The notes under the pieces: generated by a model
What the model was told of the DNA's origin: nothing
What the model saw: the letters and a program-made list of their open reading frames with translations, nothing else
Databases searched by the model: none
In this document: positions 1,357 to 62,217 of the stretch, in pieces
Layout of the letters: each line of letters starts with the position of its first letter
Numbering within the stretch: position 1 is the first letter of the stretch
Source of the DNA: an uncultured bacterium
GTDB lineage: Bacteria; Patescibacteriota; Minisyncoccia; Phycocordibacterales; GWA1-40-21
DNA: 64,000 nucleotides
Direction: 5' to 3'
Assembly: GCA_903850545.1 (NCBI GenBank)
Contig: CAINLW010000009.1
Span: 2,311 to 66,310, forward strand
Translations under genes and position numbers: made by a program

Positions 1357-1604
1357 TAGTTTTTAATTTATTATTTACAAACTGTAATAAGTGTAATAAG
1401 ATACAAATTAGATGTATAACGCGCACTGTGTAAGGGAGATATGGTGCGTGGTAGTATTCATCTCACTGTCCAAGATTGTTTGCCTCATAATAACCATACT
1501 CCTCATGGGTTTTGGGGACTCTTGAAAAAGGGTTAGGGGCAGTGAGATGTAAGATTTTTCCGAGGCCAATAGTGACCTCGGATTTTTATATTATTTTTGT
1601 GTAC

Positions 1605-1632
1605 TTGACAAGTAGCCTGAGTATGCTAAGAT
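1605..1632 (+). promoter_or_regulatory. Sigma70-like promoter (TTGACA, 16-nt spacer, TAAGAT) in front of a GC-rich structured region
   Basis: Perfect -35 hexamer TTGACA at 1605-1610. The -10-like TAAGAT at 1627-1632 follows a 16-nt spacer. Confidence 0.4.
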
Positions 1633-1639
1633 GTATTTC

Positions 1640-1959
1640 GGACTCGTGAGAATCCCCCTAAAGGACCACTCCGAGCAAAAGTGAGGAGTTTTATGAACAA
1701 AAACAACACTAAAGCACCCTTGATCGAGAGCTAAAATATCGGCGCCCCGGCCTGCAAAATTCACTAAAAGGAGAGGGAAATCCCTCTAAGGAGGAGTGCC
1801 TAACCGCACCCGATATGGAGCCAAACTAACGCCCGCCAAGGGTATTGTTTGGAAAAACCAGCGGACTAGAAGCAAAGATACGTAGCCGTGACGACAAAGT
1901 GTTTTGGGGTCTTGACCCCCGCCCCCAGGAACCTCGTGTTCCTGGGCGGCTTTTTTTTA
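1640..1959 (+). ncRNA. Unidentified structured RNA candidate, about 320 nt and GC-rich, lying between a promoter and an intrinsic terminator just upstream of dnaX
   Basis: GC content is clearly above the surroundings. No ORF of 60 aa or more. Many local helices, e.g. ccgagg..cctcgg at 1560-1581 and ggggtc..gacccc at about 1907-1920. Terminal hairpin gcccccaggaac/gttcctgggcggc followed by T9. Identity (SRP RNA, RNase P RNA, tmRNA or other) is unresolved. Confidence 0.35.
1921..1959 (+). terminator. Rho-independent terminator
   Basis: GC-rich 12-bp stem gcccccaggaac/gttcctgggcggc followed by a run of nine T. Confidence 0.7.
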
Positions 1960-2017
1960 TATTTATTCGCGAAAATTGATGAACTGAGTTATAATATTTG
2001 AGTAATAAATATCATAC

Positions 2018-4874: not shown

Positions 4875-4984
4875 AAAATAGTGATAAATATTTGCTTGTT
4901 AACTAATAATAATAAGTATTACTGAGGGATTAAAAGTTATCCACAGTATTAATTGTTGACTATAATTAATATTTGAGTATAATT

Positions 4985-5430
4985 TGCGACAGGAAAAAAT
5001 ATTGATCTTTCTGCGCATAGAAAAACGACCCTTTCGGTCAAGGAAATAGCTATGCGCATAATCCGTATCTTGCGGACAGGGCAAGATAGGGTGCTCTTCA
5101 GAAGAACACCGCTACAAAGTGGGCGACTCTTTAAATAGTTGCCACGGATAAACAAAGTGCAGTAGTGCAAAACAAATCAAGCGCCACCCAAAAAGCGAAA
5201 ACTTGCGGGCCAAAGCGTCAGTTTATGCACTCCAGCCTGTTACTTAAAATTGCGACCAATCACCCTGAGAGGACGCAATTTGTGGCACAAAAGAGTGGTC
5301 ACGCCATTCTTTAGTTAGGGGTCCTGATGGTACTCAGCGAGACCTAAAGCTCGCGTCATCTAGCTTGCTCAGGCATGCAAAAAAGGACCCCGCGATTTCG
5401 CGGTCGAGTGGGGTTGGACTAGTAAAGTTC
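4985..5430. other. GC-rich, highly self-complementary intergenic island between convergent genes; candidate structured RNA or foreign remnant
   Basis: Nested helices: ctgcgcatag..ctatgcgca enclosing gacc-ctttc-ggtc; aaattgcg..cgcaattt; gcgag-acctaaag-ctcgc; ggggttgaac..gttcaacccc at 5410-5440. Only short spurious ORFs. Confidence 0.3.
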
Positions 5431-5530
5431 AACCCCCTCTTTAATTTATAAATTATATTTAATCTACACAATAACCACATTAAAGTGGTTTTTTAATTTT
5501 GTATTTAGAATACAATAGACGTCTTAAATA

Positions 5531-25238: not shown

Positions 25239-25424
25239 GTATTAATGGTGTCAGAGATAGTGTCTTTTGCTAAGCGATAGCTTGTTGGCAACTTTTCTTA
25301 GCAGAATAACTAATTAGCGATATGATCAAGGTAGATTAATAATTTAAAAAGAGTTATTATGTGTAGGACAACTAAATAAGAAGTAGCCTAAACCAGTAGT
25401 AATACTGGCATGGTGAAAGTAAGT

Positions 25425-25510
25425 CCGTTGAAGATAAAAAACCCATCATGTGGGATTTGTCTTCAACGGCCGTATCTGGAAACAGGTATGGAGGGTTCAA
25501 ACCCTCACTC
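25425..25510 (+). other. Structured region upstream of the recombinase: a 10-bp perfect inverted repeat plus a tRNA T-arm-like hairpin; candidate attachment site
   Basis: ccgttgaaga..tcttcaacgg (25425-25469). gaggg-TTCAAAC-ccctc (25491-25506) fits the TPsiC arm consensus, but no complete tRNA could be folded. Confidence 0.3.
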
Positions 25511-39747: not shown

Positions 39748-39786
39748 AAATAATTTCGCCATATTTTTATCTTTTATTATAATCAA

Positions 39787-40035
39787 ATGTATTACCTCTA
39801 TATTCTTAAATGCGCTGATAAAACCCTATATACTGGAATTACAACAGATTTGAAAAGAAGAATTTTTGAACATAATAATACAAAACTTGGTTCAAAATAT
39901 ACTTCTTCTCGAAGACCGGTAAAAATTGTTTACTTTAGAAAATATAAAAATAGATCACTTGCTTCAATAGATGAGGCTAGGATTAAAAAATTAACAAGGA
40001 AAGAAAAAACCAAGTTAATAAATAAGAAATTGTAG
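39787..40035 (+). CDS. GIY-YIG nuclease-domain small protein
   Basis: YYLYILKCADKTLYTGITTDLKRRIFEH. Confidence 0.65.
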   Translation: MYYLYILKCADKTLYTGITTDLKRRIFEHNNTKLGSKYTSSRRPVKIVYFRKYKNRSLASIDEARIKKLTRKEKTKLINKKL

Positions 40036-40108
40036 TTTTGTGTATTTCGCCACGTTGATAATAGTTACGTTACGTGCTACTTTTCTTCATGAACGTTTTG
40101 GGAGGAAA

Positions 40109-40382
40109 AATGAATATAATAGTTAAAGCGGTAACAAATGTCGGTATGAAAGTCACAGGAAAAAGGACTAACAAGCTACCGAAGATTCCGCAAGGGTGCG
40201 GGTTGGTTGCTGTAATACACAAAGGGTCCGAAGATGTGTTAGAAGACGTGACATATTTAGCAAAATATATGGGTTGTCACATAAAGGACTGCTGCGGAAC
40301 ACACAGGATGGACCTATACATTCTGTCACATTATCAGATGCGGTTGTGTGGTATAGGGCCATGCCAACACAGCAAGAGGTAG
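40109..40382 (+). CDS. Cysteine-rich 91-aa ORF in a GC-rich segment
   Basis: GGGAGG 6 nt before ATG. 8 Cys including CCGTH and CGIGPC. The terminator-like hairpin cgcgcc..ggcgcg lies 34-66 nt downstream. Confidence 0.3.
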
Positions 40383-40459
40383 TTGAGTCACCTAGAAGTA
40401 CTCGTGATCGTCGCGCCTGTATTTTAAGGCGCGGCGATTATTTTTTTATATTTTCTGAT

Positions 40460-40493
40460 AACATTCCGACATTCTGCAGAATGTCGGAATGTT
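40460..40493. promoter_or_regulatory. Perfect 34-bp palindrome 50 nt upstream of the U32 peptidase start; candidate operator
   Basis: aacattccgacattctg|cagaatgtcggaatgtt centred on CTGCAG. Confidence 0.5.
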
Positions 40494-40543
40494 ACTTTAA
40501 ATTAGCCTTTCTTTTATTCAAATATAATGATAAAAATATACTA

Positions 40544-41776
40544 ATGGCAAAATTAACAAACAAACCTGAGTTACTTTCACCAGTACAAGATTTTACATCA
40601 CTAACAGCAGCAATAGAAAATGGTGCCGATGCTGTTTTTTTTGGTATCAAAGGCTTTAATATGCGCGCTGGGGCAAAAAACTTCACTGTAAGTGATTTAC
40701 ATAAAATCGCAAAAACTGCTCACAAAAGTAATGTAAAAACTTATCTAGCTATAAATACTATTATTTTTGAAAATGAACTAAAAGAAGTTGAGAAAATTTT
40801 AATTAAAGTTAAAAAAGCCAAAATAGACGCTATTATCTGCTGGGATTTTGCAATTATACAAATTGCAAAGAAGTTAAAAATTGAAATTCATATTAGCACT
40901 CAAGCAAGTATTGCAAATTCGGAGACGGCAGAATTTTATCAGAAACTTGGTGCGACAAGAGTGGTACTAGCACGCGAGTGTTCACTTGAACAAATTAAAG
41001 AAATAAAGAAAAACACGAATGTTGAAATAGAAATCTTTATTCATGGTGCAATGTGCGTATCTGTTTCTGGAAGATGTTTTATGTCACAATTTTTGTATGG
41101 TAAATCAGCAAATCGAGGTGAATGCTTACAACCCTGCAGAAGAAAATATATTATTAAACAAATTGATGGAGGTGCTGAACTAGAACTTGGTGAAAATTAT
41201 GTCCTTAGTCCAAAGGATTTATGTACAATTGATTTTATAGAAAAAATAATTGATGTTGGCGTAAACTGCTTAAAAATTGAAGGAAGAAACAGAAGTCCTG
41301 AATATGTAGCAACAGTTACTAAAGCCTATCGAACAATTATTGATTTTATTTATTCAGCTAAAGTACGTGACGATAAATTCAAACAGGAATTAAAAAATCT
41401 AAAAAACAAATTATTCGAAGATTTGAATACTGTATATCATCGAGGTAGTAGCAGTGGTTTTTTCCTTGGAAAACCTATTAATGAGTGGACAAAAGATCCT
41501 GAAAGCCAGGCGACTCAAAAGAAAGTATATATTGGAAAAGTTTCAAACTATTATAAAAAAATTGGTGCAATTGAAACAACTATTCAAACAAATAATACAA
41601 TTAGAATTGGTGATACACTTATTATTCAAGGGCCCACAACTGGAAGCATAAAAGAAAAAATTATATCAATTGAAAAAAATCATTTACCTACCAAAATGGC
41701 AAAAAAGGGCGAAAAGATTGCATTTGGAATCAAATCTCTCGTTAGACAAAATGATCAGATATATTTAATTAAATAG
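40544..41776 (+). CDS. U32-family peptidase (collagenase-like / RlhA-TrhP family)
   Basis: Listed ORF trimmed to MAKLTNKPELLSPVQDF. E-x-F-x-H-G-A-M-C-x-S-x-S-G-R-C motif region IFIHGAMCVSVSGRCFMS. Confidence 0.75.
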   Translation: MAKLTNKPELLSPVQDFTSLTAAIENGADAVFFGIKGFNMRAGAKNFTVSDLHKIAKTAHKSNVKTYLAINTIIFENELKEVEKILIKVKKAKIDAIICWDFAIIQIAKKLKIEIHISTQASIANSETAEFYQKLGATRVVLARECSLEQIKEIKKNTNVEIEIFIHGAMCVSVSGRCFMSQFLYGKSANRGECLQPCRRKYIIKQIDGGAELELGENYVLSPKDLCTIDFIEKIIDVGVNCLKIEGRNRSPEYVATVTKAYRTIIDFIYSAKVRDDKFKQELKNLKNKLFEDLNTVYHRGSSSGFFLGKPINEWTKDPESQATQKKVYIGKVSNYYKKIGAIETTIQTNNTIRIGDTLIIQGPTTGSIKEKIISIEKNHLPTKMAKKGEKIAFGIKSLVRQNDQIYLIK

Positions 41777-41838: not shown

Positions 41839-42711
41839 ATGAAAGTCGAAGCAATACGTGAATACTTGGAAAAATTTAATCAAAATATTTACACCTCTGG
41901 TGAAACTGAATTTTGCTTTGCTCGAGATCTACAAGGATTGCTTGGATATAAAGACTGGAATAATTTCTTGAATGTTATAGGAAAAGCAAAAACTGCTTGC
42001 AACCATTCTGGAATTGATGTTGAGAAAAATTTTAATCCAACCGTCAGACTTGTGAATATTTCTACAAATGGTAGTAAAGATGTTGATGATTTTCTTTTGA
42101 CTAGATATGCTTGTTATTTAATTGCACAAAACGGAGATTCTTCAAAAGAACAAGTTGCTTTTGCAATGAGTTATTTTGCTGTTCAAGCTAGAAAACAAGA
42201 AATTTTAGTAAAGAAACTTGAAGAGTTTGAAAGATTGCAAGCGAGAAAAAAATTAGGCGAAACAGAAAAGCAATTATCCGGAGTTGTTTATGAAAGAGGG
42301 GTTGATGGCGGAGGATTTGCTGTCATTCGAAGCAGTGGAGATGAGGCATTGTTTGGGGGGAAAACTACCGCTGAAATGAAAAATAAATACAAAATTCCTC
42401 AATCAAGAGCATTGGCCGATTTTTTACCAACCATAACAATAAAAGCAAAAGAGTTCGCTGACGAAATTACTGTATTTAATGTAAAGAAAAGTGGGGGAAT
42501 GCGCGGAATAAATAGCATAAAAGAAGAGCATGTTAGAAATAATAGAGACGTGAGAGATCTTTTAAAAAACAGAGGGATTGTCCCAGAAAATTTGCCTCCG
42601 GAAGAAGATTTACAAAAAGTACAAAGAAGAATAAACTCTCAAGAAAAAGTTATTTTAAAAGAAGTAAAGGAAAATCCGGATCATCAAACAGACCAAACGG
42701 TACTAAATTAG
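41839..42711 (+). CDS. Hypothetical protein, possibly DinD/antirepressor-like
   Basis: 290 aa. Weak resemblance only. Confidence 0.3.
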   Translation: MKVEAIREYLEKFNQNIYTSGETEFCFARDLQGLLGYKDWNNFLNVIGKAKTACNHSGIDVEKNFNPTVRLVNISTNGSKDVDDFLLTRYACYLIAQNGDSSKEQVAFAMSYFAVQARKQEILVKKLEEFERLQARKKLGETEKQLSGVVYERGVDGGGFAVIRSSGDEALFGGKTTAEMKNKYKIPQSRALADFLPTITIKAKEFADEITVFNVKKSGGMRGINSIKEEHVRNNRDVRDLLKNRGIVPENLPPEEDLQKVQRRINSQEKVILKEVKENPDHQTDQTVLN

Positions 42712-61843: not shown

Positions 61844-62017
61844 GGATTTGTACCAAAACCTCACAAAAAGGCCCAAATTAGGCCAAATATTGCGTATTAG
61901 AGGCATAATTTACTCAAAATTCATCAATTAAAGTGGTTTGACCAAAGGCCAAACCGCTTTTCTGTTTTTTAAAAAAATTAAACATTTACTTACCTTGAAT
62001 CACGAATCTCCCTTTTC

Positions 62018-62192
62018 TGTCATCCTCGCTTCGGCAGGGTTGAAGTTGGGATGGGACCCAACTTCAAGGACGGACTGAGCGGAGGCGAAGGAGTCGGGGT
62101 CGCGAGATTTTTCAGCTGAAAAATACTTGTGATCCAGATTAATTGAATTAAAATGCGATACAACCTGGATCCCCGCATCCGCGAGGATGACA
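62018..62192. other. GC-rich structured element with 12-bp terminal inverted repeats and nested palindromes; candidate miniature mobile element or structured RNA
   Basis: Terminal inverted repeats tgtcatcctcgc (62018-62029) and gcgaggatgaca (62181-62192). Internal hairpin ttgaagttggg..cccaacttcaa. Perfect palindrome atttttcag|ctgaaaaat. gatccagatt..aacctggatc. Confidence 0.4.
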
Positions 62193-62217
62193 ATTCGGAG
62201 AGTTTCGTAATTCACAG

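Follow-up and report, generated by a model that had tools for sequence, protein, structure and literature searches.

The locus between the GIY-YIG and U32-family genes

We analysed a stretch of 64,000 nucleotides (in the following the window), which belongs to an AT-rich genome of the CPR/Patescibacteria. The closest relatives of its U32-family gene were found in MAGs of the Paceibacterota/Minisyncoccia. Between a gene for a short GIY-YIG protein (39787-40035) and the U32-family gene (40544-41776) lies a GC-rich block of ~350 nt (~40100-40450) with a GC content of 41-47% compared to 25-30% in the flanks. A first-pass annotation of the window had pointed out this segment and put its length at ~450 nt; the segment is there, at the shorter length that we measured. 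Table 1 lists the features that we assigned to the locus. Homologs of the protein encoded in the block define two further lineages, which we name after their proteins P0003 and P0004. The DNA comparisons for the P0004 lineage refer to the loci L085 and L086.

Table 1. Features between the GIY-YIG gene and the U32-family gene (positions in the window).
Feature	Position	Strand	Evidence
GIY-YIG (URI domain only) protein gene, 82 aa	39787-40035	+	Pfam PF01541, E = 2.8e-15
Promoter-like element of the small gene (predicted), TTGATA-17 nt-TACTTT	40055-40083	+	Hexamers and spacing conserved
Shine-Dalgarno sequence GGGAGG	40100-40105	+	4 nt before the ATG; identical in all lineages with DNA
Small protein-coding gene, 90 aa, pI 9.3	40110-40382	+	Homologs P0003 and P0004; dN/dS 0.21; invariant residues
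Small hairpin directly after the stop codon	40385-40403	+	Same predicted fold in the window and L085
Predicted intrinsic terminator of the small gene	40404-40448	+	15-bp stem, 8-nt loop, T-run
Perfect 36-bp palindrome, strain- or lineage-specific	40459-40494	.	Identical in at least seven assemblies; absent from U32 relatives and L085
Conserved U32 promoter/leader (CTTTTATT...TATAATG.TAAAAATATA; also CTTTTATTTAT..TATAATG.TAAAAATATA)	40507-40543	+	Sole part conserved in relatives
U32-family gene, TrhP/UbiU-like, 410 aa	40544-41776	+	Pfam PF01136, E = 3.5e-81

The segment 39601-40700 is 100% identical across six independent assemblies, and a seventh differs by one base, which lies outside the palindrome. 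All seven assemblies read through the palindrome into the U32-family gene and we can thus treat it as real sequence rather than an artefact. Three short contigs break inside the palindrome; assemblers tend to break at perfect palindromes. The contigs of the population are clonal, with 0-2 SNPs in 1.1 kb, and their identity hence carries no information on selection of the palindrome.

The start of the U32-family gene at 40544 had been proposed before and is supported: the relatives align from residue 1 and the conserved promoter/leader lies directly upstream. In the public contigs of the window strain, by comparison, this gene was called with 500 aa, starting inside the small ORF and spanning the palindrome, because the U32 frame is by chance free of stops for 116 codons upstream. 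The database entries of P0003 and P0004 carry false N-terminal extensions. For all public assemblies of the locus that we examined, either the U32-family gene was lengthened by ~90 codons through the terminator and the palindrome or the small ORF was falsely extended at its N-terminus. As a result of these gene-calling errors the small gene is nearly invisible in protein databases, and the rarity of its family is in part an effect of gene calling.

The small gene and its product

The small ORF runs from an ATG at 40110 to a TAG at 40380-40382 and encodes 90 aa plus the stop. It had been described as a Cys-rich ORF with a good Shine-Dalgarno sequence, the motifs CCGTH and CGIGPC and eight cysteines. 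We found the ORF, the GGGAGG and both motifs as described and counted six cysteines. Further upstream, the hexamers TTGATA and TAYTTT and the 17-nt spacing between them are kept in L085 and in L081, a contig whose left part belongs to the P0003 lineage; L085 keeps the spacing despite an 18-nt insertion just upstream. The -10 hexamer TACTTT is weak and fails a consensus promoter scan, so that we infer the promoter of the small gene from its conservation.

A small hairpin directly follows the stop codon and shows one compensatory change between the window and L085 (U-A to C-G). The next stem-loop (40404-40441) starts 21 nt after the stop codon and comprises 15 pairs, 8 of them G-C, with an 8-nt loop, followed by TTTTTT. 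The segment that holds both hairpins folds at -30.2 kcal/mol (z = -6.2). A hairpin cgcgcc/ggcgcg with a T-run had been noticed here earlier; it forms the core of the 15-bp stem, is stronger than described and, judged by this stem and tail, would be a strong intrinsic terminator. In L085 a terminator with another stem sequence stands at this position, and the order of small hairpin, terminator and second hairpin is common to the 3' regions of both lineages. We propose that the TTGATA-17-TACTTT element (about 40055-40083), together with the strong Shine-Dalgarno sequence GGGAGG, would drive a transcript of ~350 nt, that this transcript would encode a basic protein of 90 aa under purifying selection and that transcription would end at the terminator at 40404-40448.

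To find relatives of the small protein we conducted an exhaustive HMMER search of 1.84 billion cluster representatives, which returned two full-length homologs, P0003 with 63% and P0004 with 52% identity. A word-indexed search of 5.8 billion proteins gave the identical protein and one partial match only. The family comprises three lineages among the roughly 7.6 billion proteins that were searched. A profile search for further members added none, and nucleotide-level scans of IMG/VR and the JGI metagenomes, both with the single sequence and with the alignment, gave no relatives; the one match in IMG/VR was a chance match of 15 residues. Pfam, NCBIfam, PHROG and PADLOC gave no match for the family, and no repeat family was found within the window. 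One further candidate, P0005, is a proline-rich repetitive protein of 3,095 aa with an E-value of 2e-6 that is the sum over six weak repeats, and we treated it as spurious.

Another contig, L081, matches the window at 100% across 40095-40264 (170 nt). Upstream of this stretch the identity drops to 75%, and downstream of it follows an unrelated ilvD with 52% GC. The C-terminus of its GIY-YIG protein is identical to P0010, the GIY-YIG protein on the contig of P0003; the contig switches to window-type sequence at the conserved Shine-Dalgarno sequence and ATG, and the window strain also turned up in further samples from the series that L081 came from. The P0003-type left part, the switch of lineage at this point, the jump to ilvD and the presence of the window strain in the series led us to regard L081 as a chimera that arose by assembly or recombination. 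We rejected an ultra-conserved core of 170 nt, as the P0003 lineage's own ORF is only 63% identical to that of the window.

The ORF is open in all three lineages with 89-92 aa. We compared the window and L085 at the DNA level: dN/dS is 0.21 in the frame of the ORF and 1.16 and 0.60 in the two shifted frames, and the differences at the three codon positions number 27, 26 and 52 over 88 codons. The synonymous sites are near saturation, as they likewise are in the neighbouring GIY-YIG gene that served as a control, and these conservation statistics rest on one DNA pair (window and L085) and one protein-only comparison. With the frame kept in two diverged homologs and a dN/dS of ~0.21, the coding signature in relatives that the first-pass annotation had asked for is present. 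These signals argue for a genuine protein-coding gene that is conserved, under purifying selection and has the appearance of an expressed gene.

The composition of the small gene differs from that of its surroundings. Its GC3 values of 0.48 (window) and 0.32 (L085) compare to ~0.2 in the neighbouring genes and 0.24 in the host, and the codon usage score lies below the 1st percentile of host-gene windows. This codon usage fits a foreign origin before the lineages split. Such atypical codon usage is unusual for a long-resident gene. The high GC content of the block reflects the atypical composition of the small gene and not a structured RNA.

The six cysteines of the protein (C30, C56, C61, C62, C80 and C85) amount to 6.7% of the residues compared to 1.0% in the long ORFs of the window. 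Residues 1-72 are conserved and the last ~18 (73-90) are hypervariable. Among the residues that are invariant across the three lineages are H37, H57, C61, C62 and C80, and the invariant motifs are EDVT, AKY.G.H.K.CC and MDLY.L. Only three of the six cysteines (C61, C62 and C80) are invariant, whereas those of CGIGPC and QGCG are not conserved. The pI within the family ranges from 9.2 to 9.75. From the high pI, the invariant His2Cys3 set and a weak L30e/L7Ae-like profile signal we infer a small basic protein that probably binds nucleic acids and is possibly stabilised by zinc.

The profile signal is limited. A profile search of the PDB gave a weak match to L30e with E = 0.05, and each single sequence matched in the same register with E about 1. 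An hhalign comparison with a manually entered alignment of L7Ae, L30e, YbxF and YlxQ reached a probability of 35% (P = 4e-4) and covers residues 4-57 only; the GIY-YIG control reached 0.4%. No match to Pfam PF01248 was obtained for any of the three family members even at E ≤ 10. The invariant L71-G72 of the reference alignment would correspond to the invariant L69-Y70 of the small protein, with LY in the place of LG, and the invariant prolines P24 and P27 fall in the would-be RNA-binding helix of the fold. Other basic ribosomal proteins (eL32, eL40 and eS7) score similarly to L30e, which suggests a compositional effect. An AlphaFold2 model from the alignment of three sequences had a mean pLDDT of 41 and a pTM of 0.31 and was too poor for a fold search. 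We regard an L7Ae-like ancestry as a tentative and rather doubtful hypothesis. A PtuB-like match consisted of a local alignment of 22 residues and was too short and too weak to interpret. We also rejected an origin in defence systems or phages, with no PADLOC or PHROG match for either the small ORF or the GIY-YIG gene.

The palindrome and the neighbouring genes

The palindrome had been reported as a flawless repeat of 34 bp at 40460-40493. Its symmetry is indeed perfect, but it extends further and is the 36-mer TAACATTCCGACATTCTGCAGAATGTCGGAATGTTA with an arm of 18 nt. No other perfect palindrome in the window exceeds an arm of 9 nt, and 100 Markov-shuffled windows gave arms of 13 nt at most. 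As RNA it is predicted to form a 16-bp hairpin with the loop UGCA at -23 kcal/mol. It was scored as terminator-like, with a stem of 16 pairs and a loop of 4 nt, where the tail CTTTAAATTA barely passes the rule of 5 Ts in 8 positions. The tail ACTTTAAATT is a poor U-tract and the terminator activity may therefore be low.

We searched for further copies of the palindrome and of its half-site. With up to 3 mismatches the half-site matched only the two arms of the palindrome itself in the 64-kb window, so the recurrence that had been suggested as a check did not show up there. Among the 100 loci that were fetched the palindrome was not found outside contigs of the same strain, and the half-site gave a few chance matches in unrelated loci at 3 mismatches. 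Neither palindrome nor half-site was present upstream of 20 U32 relatives or in the P0004 lineage (L085). At the position of the palindrome L085 has an ordinary hairpin plus UUUUUAUUUUU, that is a hairpin and T-run terminator, and in several U32 relatives the terminator hairpin of the upstream gene stands in front of the conserved U32 promoter. From this distribution the palindrome does not appear to be a conserved control site of the U32-family gene. It ends 28 nt upstream of the TATAAT at 40523-40528, which corresponds to about -41 to -76 from the predicted transcription start of the U32-family gene; activator sites occur in this region.

We suggest that the palindrome acts, if at all, most likely as a second (back-up) transcription-stop or insulator hairpin before the U32-family gene's own promoter, because it sits where the sister lineage has its second terminator hairpin and where U32 relatives have the terminator of the upstream gene. 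Its flawless symmetry would be most simply explained by a recent template switch (quasipalindrome correction) acting on a hairpin that was imperfect before. Template switching is known to turn quasipalindromes into perfect inverted repeats (PMC7202029, PMC3820800).

The best NCBIfam matches of the U32-family protein are TrhP and UbiU, both below the cut-offs. Upstream of the 20 relatives only the counterpart of window positions 40507-40543 is conserved, and none of them has the small ORF, the GIY-YIG gene or the palindrome within 4 kb. The first-pass annotation had linked the small ORF to the U32-family gene and proposed a search for it upstream of U32 genes in relatives, which gave 0 of 20. 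When we searched 100 loci (708 kb) with the profile in six frames, the small ORF came up only in its own three lineages. The gene order in the window and on the P0003 contig is ABC ATPase (of the ABC-F type), GIY-YIG, small ORF, U32 and Bro-N. On the P0004 contigs it is holin-like, GIY-YIG, small ORF and Bro-N, without U32. We rejected a conserved pair of the two, because the ORF is missing from the 20 relatives and stands without an adjacent U32-family gene in the P0004 lineage. GIY-YIG is the constant upstream neighbour of the ORF in all three lineages. Its homologs in CPR number more than 2,170 at E ≤ 1e-10, with the best 120 at 70-86% identity, and a general pair of GIY-YIG gene and small ORF was rejected in turn, as the close homologs lie in unrelated contexts without such an ORF. 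The small ORF is a clade-specific gene and not a general partner of either neighbour, and its protein family is confined to a narrow Paceibacterota/Minisyncoccia-like clade of CPR.

Alternative readings and comparison with known systems

Our preferred reading, to which we assign a probability of roughly 0.7, is that the region holds a compact, self-contained small gene with its own terminator between the GIY-YIG gene and the U32-family gene, and that the palindrome is no conserved operator of the latter. In AT-rich genomes a GC-rich island usually marks an RNA gene, and the block could accordingly be a structured non-coding RNA gene in which the ORF is incidental. Its GC content of 41-47% against a local background of about 28%, the strong terminator that closes the unit, a codon usage unlike that of the host and a 3' half that folds better than shuffled sequences (z = -4.1) would all fit. 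The z-score of this half stems mostly from the terminator, however, and the 170 nt at the 5' end show no unusual structure (z = -1.0 against shuffles). Rfam gave no match on the block even at E ≤ 1, with the scans at gathering thresholds likewise empty, and ARAGORN found no tmRNA or tRNA there. The substitutions between lineages concentrate at third codon positions, with the dN/dS of 0.21 in the ORF frame alone, and all three lineages keep an intact ORF at a protein identity of 52-63%. We rejected the RNA gene as highly improbable on these grounds: no match in Rfam or ARAGORN, a 5' core that folds no better than shuffles and substitutions that are codon-like rather than pairing-preserving. The product of the ORF might instead be a RiPP-type precursor or a metal-binding partner of the U32 enzyme, as had been proposed at the outset. 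The conserved residues 1-72 followed by a hypervariable end that contains Cys in every lineage resemble a leader and a core, and in two of the three lineages the ORF adjoins the U32 gene for an Fe-S-type enzyme. Variable C-termini are common in small proteins, though, and the pattern is non-specific. Metal binding as a partner of U32 is weakened by the cysteines, with conservation limited to three of six, and by the neighbourhoods, where the two genes occur apart in the P0004 lineage and in the 20 relatives. A modified peptide finds no maturation enzyme, protease or exporter conserved beside the ORF, the neighbours being GIY-YIG, U32, Bro-N, an ABC-F ATPase and a holin-like gene. Those U32 members that have been characterised hydroxylate RNA or quinones (PMC6599085, PMC6747719, PMC10990095) and are not peptide-modifying enzymes. 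Nothing ties the U32-family gene mechanistically to the small protein and no RiPP machinery is present, so that we give this proposal hardly any credence.

For the palindrome the first-pass annotation had favoured an operator or activator site, at which a dimeric regulator would control the U32-family gene in this lineage. Its dyad symmetry is far beyond chance, it lies just upstream of the predicted U32 promoter (about -41 to -76), it shows no variation within the sampled population and a gene for a Bro-N protein, a putative DNA-binding protein, follows U32. Both the Bro-N protein and the small basic protein are conceivable as binders. On the other hand there is no second copy in the 64-kb window or, outside the same strain, in 100 related loci; the palindrome is absent before 20 orthologous U32 genes, where conservation is limited to the core promoter/leader, and from the P0004 lineage; no classical HTH regulator was found among the six flanking genes scanned; and identity among clonal contigs (0-2 SNPs in 1.1 kb) is no evidence of selection. 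Real operators are rarely 36/36 perfect. Of the testable predictions of the operator, recurrence in the window and the related loci and conservation at orthologous promoters failed, and a search for an adjacent regulator gave no classical candidate; we consider the operator unlikely. In the terms of the first-pass annotation, the palindrome proved unique in the window with no cognate regulator found among the flanking genes scanned, while the small ORF proved conserved with a coding signature. Still less likely in our view is a mobile cassette of two genes, GIY-YIG and the small ORF, with its right end at the palindrome. On one contig, L082, the pair is present with 99.7% identity; its left flank is unrelated and starts exactly 1 nt ahead of the ATG of GIY-YIG, and the contig stops exactly at the end of the palindrome. 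GIY-YIG genes with 70-86% identity occur in unrelated CPR neighbourhoods and the flanking genes differ among the three lineages of the ORF. But this case rests on a single contig of 823 nt, and three contigs end inside the palindrome just as assemblers do at perfect palindromes. The window and P0003 share the flanks on both sides despite an ORF identity of 63%, which argues for vertical inheritance. Other CPR GIY-YIG genes come without such an ORF or palindrome, and neither terminal repeats nor a recombinase were found. A more far-reaching combination would see the small protein as a highly diverged, His/Cys-bearing offshoot of the K-turn-binding L7Ae/L30e proteins in one CPR clade that acts on RNA, conceivably together with the U32 enzyme, which resembles RNA hydroxylases, and the palindrome as a lineage-specific control or insulator element under selection and no mutational accident; we consider this combination unlikely.

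The self-contained small gene remains our preferred reading and the arrangement as a whole is ordinary: an unannotated, narrowly distributed small gene with a terminator, next to a palindrome that is curious and probably inconsequential. The main value of the analysis lies in annotation, as a lesson on gene calling in CPR genomes, and it illustrates that RNA genes need not account for every GC-rich island of an AT-rich CPR genome. It adds one uncharacterised family of small basic proteins that is very narrowly distributed and one palindrome that is unusually perfect and whose function is doubtful; neither of them bears on a long-standing question.

We compared the features of the locus with known systems. 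The small gene resembles the lineage-restricted orphan small genes of the CPR/Patescibacteria: with 90 aa it would be monocistronic with its own Shine-Dalgarno sequence and terminator, it has no domain match, it occurs in few closely related genomes, and genes of this kind are routinely missed or swallowed by automatic gene calling. It differs from them in that its coding status is backed by dN/dS and conserved expression signals and in being markedly GC-richer than the host. The L7Ae/L30e K-turn-binding proteins (L30e, L7Ae, YbxF and YlxQ) are similar in size (82-120 aa) and basic charge (PMC3884654, PMC9723947), and the weak match is co-linear over about 54 residues in the region of G-x-K, hydrophobic strand and helix. 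In contrast, the C-terminal half including that family's invariant LG...G motif is unmatched in the small protein, and the conserved His/Cys set of the small protein is no feature of that family. For the U32-family gene the similarity is to prephenate-dependent hydroxylases of the TrhP/UbiU class, with matches that stay below the curated cut-offs (PMC6599085, PMC6747719, PMC10990095).

The 3' region can be compared to intrinsic and tandem terminators. The stem at 40404-40448 is of the textbook type, GC-rich with a T-run, and a second hairpin follows in both lineages. The difference is that the second hairpin of the window is a flawless 36-bp palindrome with a marginal T-tail, whereas that of the sister lineage is an ordinary hairpin with a U-run. 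The palindrome itself is similar to the products of template switching at quasipalindromes, with a perfect repeat where relatives carry imperfect hairpins (PMC7202029, PMC3820800); it is specific to its lineage and shows no sign of a repeated binding motif. It departs from these examples in one respect: the imperfect ancestral state of the window palindrome is presumed rather than directly observed.

Gene calls that conceal the small ORF

The reading frame of the U32-family gene is open for 116 codons upstream of its true ATG (window positions 40196-40543) and runs across both the terminator and the palindrome. Because this stretch is free of stop codons, the public gene calls at the U32 locus (loci L087-L094) give a 'U32' protein of 500 aa, which conceals the small ORF encoding the 90-aa basic protein. 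We observed an over-extension similar in kind for the Bro-N gene in the P0004 lineage: in locus L086 its called start lies well upstream of the Bro-N ATG of L085, and the 3' end of the small ORF falls inside the called gene.

Contigs with unusual junctions

Two short contigs contained junctions. The 823-nt contig L082 carries the GIY-YIG gene and the small ORF with 99.7% identity to the window. Its left flank (L082 positions 1-114) is unrelated to the window and had no match among the other loci compared; the junction corresponds to window position 39786, the nucleotide directly in front of the GIY-YIG ATG. L082 could come from a strain with a rearrangement, from a second copy or from misassembly. 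In the 694-nt contig L081, which is on record in two samples, an N-terminal fragment of ilvD with 52% GC (L081 positions 353-694) is fused to CPR sequence of 19% GC. This junction is probably an assembly chimera, and we consider a real recombination or horizontal gene transfer event the less favoured explanation.

GC-rich stretches and LOOT RNA

GC-rich intergenic stretches also occur elsewhere in the window, which as a whole has ∼33% GC. The two ∼650-nt stretches listed in the table contain no credible ORF and had no Rfam match, even in focused scans at E ≤ 1. In contrast to the small-ORF locus they are candidates for unannotated structured RNAs. For the GC-rich gap between long ORFs a convincing ORF was not found either. 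The LOOT RNA match is clear, with a score far above the Rfam gathering score of 46.4.

Features of the window outside the small ORF
Feature	Position	Strand	Details
GC-rich intergenic stretch	1357-2017		∼650 nt; GC peak 0.54; longest ORF 57 aa
GC-rich intergenic stretch	4875-5530		∼650 nt; GC peak 0.51; longest ORF 73 aa
LOOT RNA (Rfam RF03000)	25385-25506	+	85.6 bits; E = 9e-15
Bro-N domain protein gene	41839-42711	+	downstream of U32
GC-rich gap between long ORFs	61844-62217		GC 0.42; peak 0.51

GIY-YIG and Bro-N genes

Homologs of the 82-aa GIY-YIG-only protein (39787-40035) number more than 2,170. They come from a very diverse set of CPR MAGs and from some 'archaeon' MAGs, and the best 120 of them show 70-86% identity. 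The gene neighbourhoods of the homologs (loci L095-L100) are unrelated to one another. Such high conservation in so variable a context is unusual and might reflect mobility or a strongly constrained function. Synteny of Bro-N, GIY-YIG and the small ORF was observed in all three lineages (window strain, P0003 and P0004). The Bro-N protein matches phrog_8036 in PHROG (E = 1e-78) and the candidate defence family PDC-S13 in PADLOC (E = 5.5e-99).
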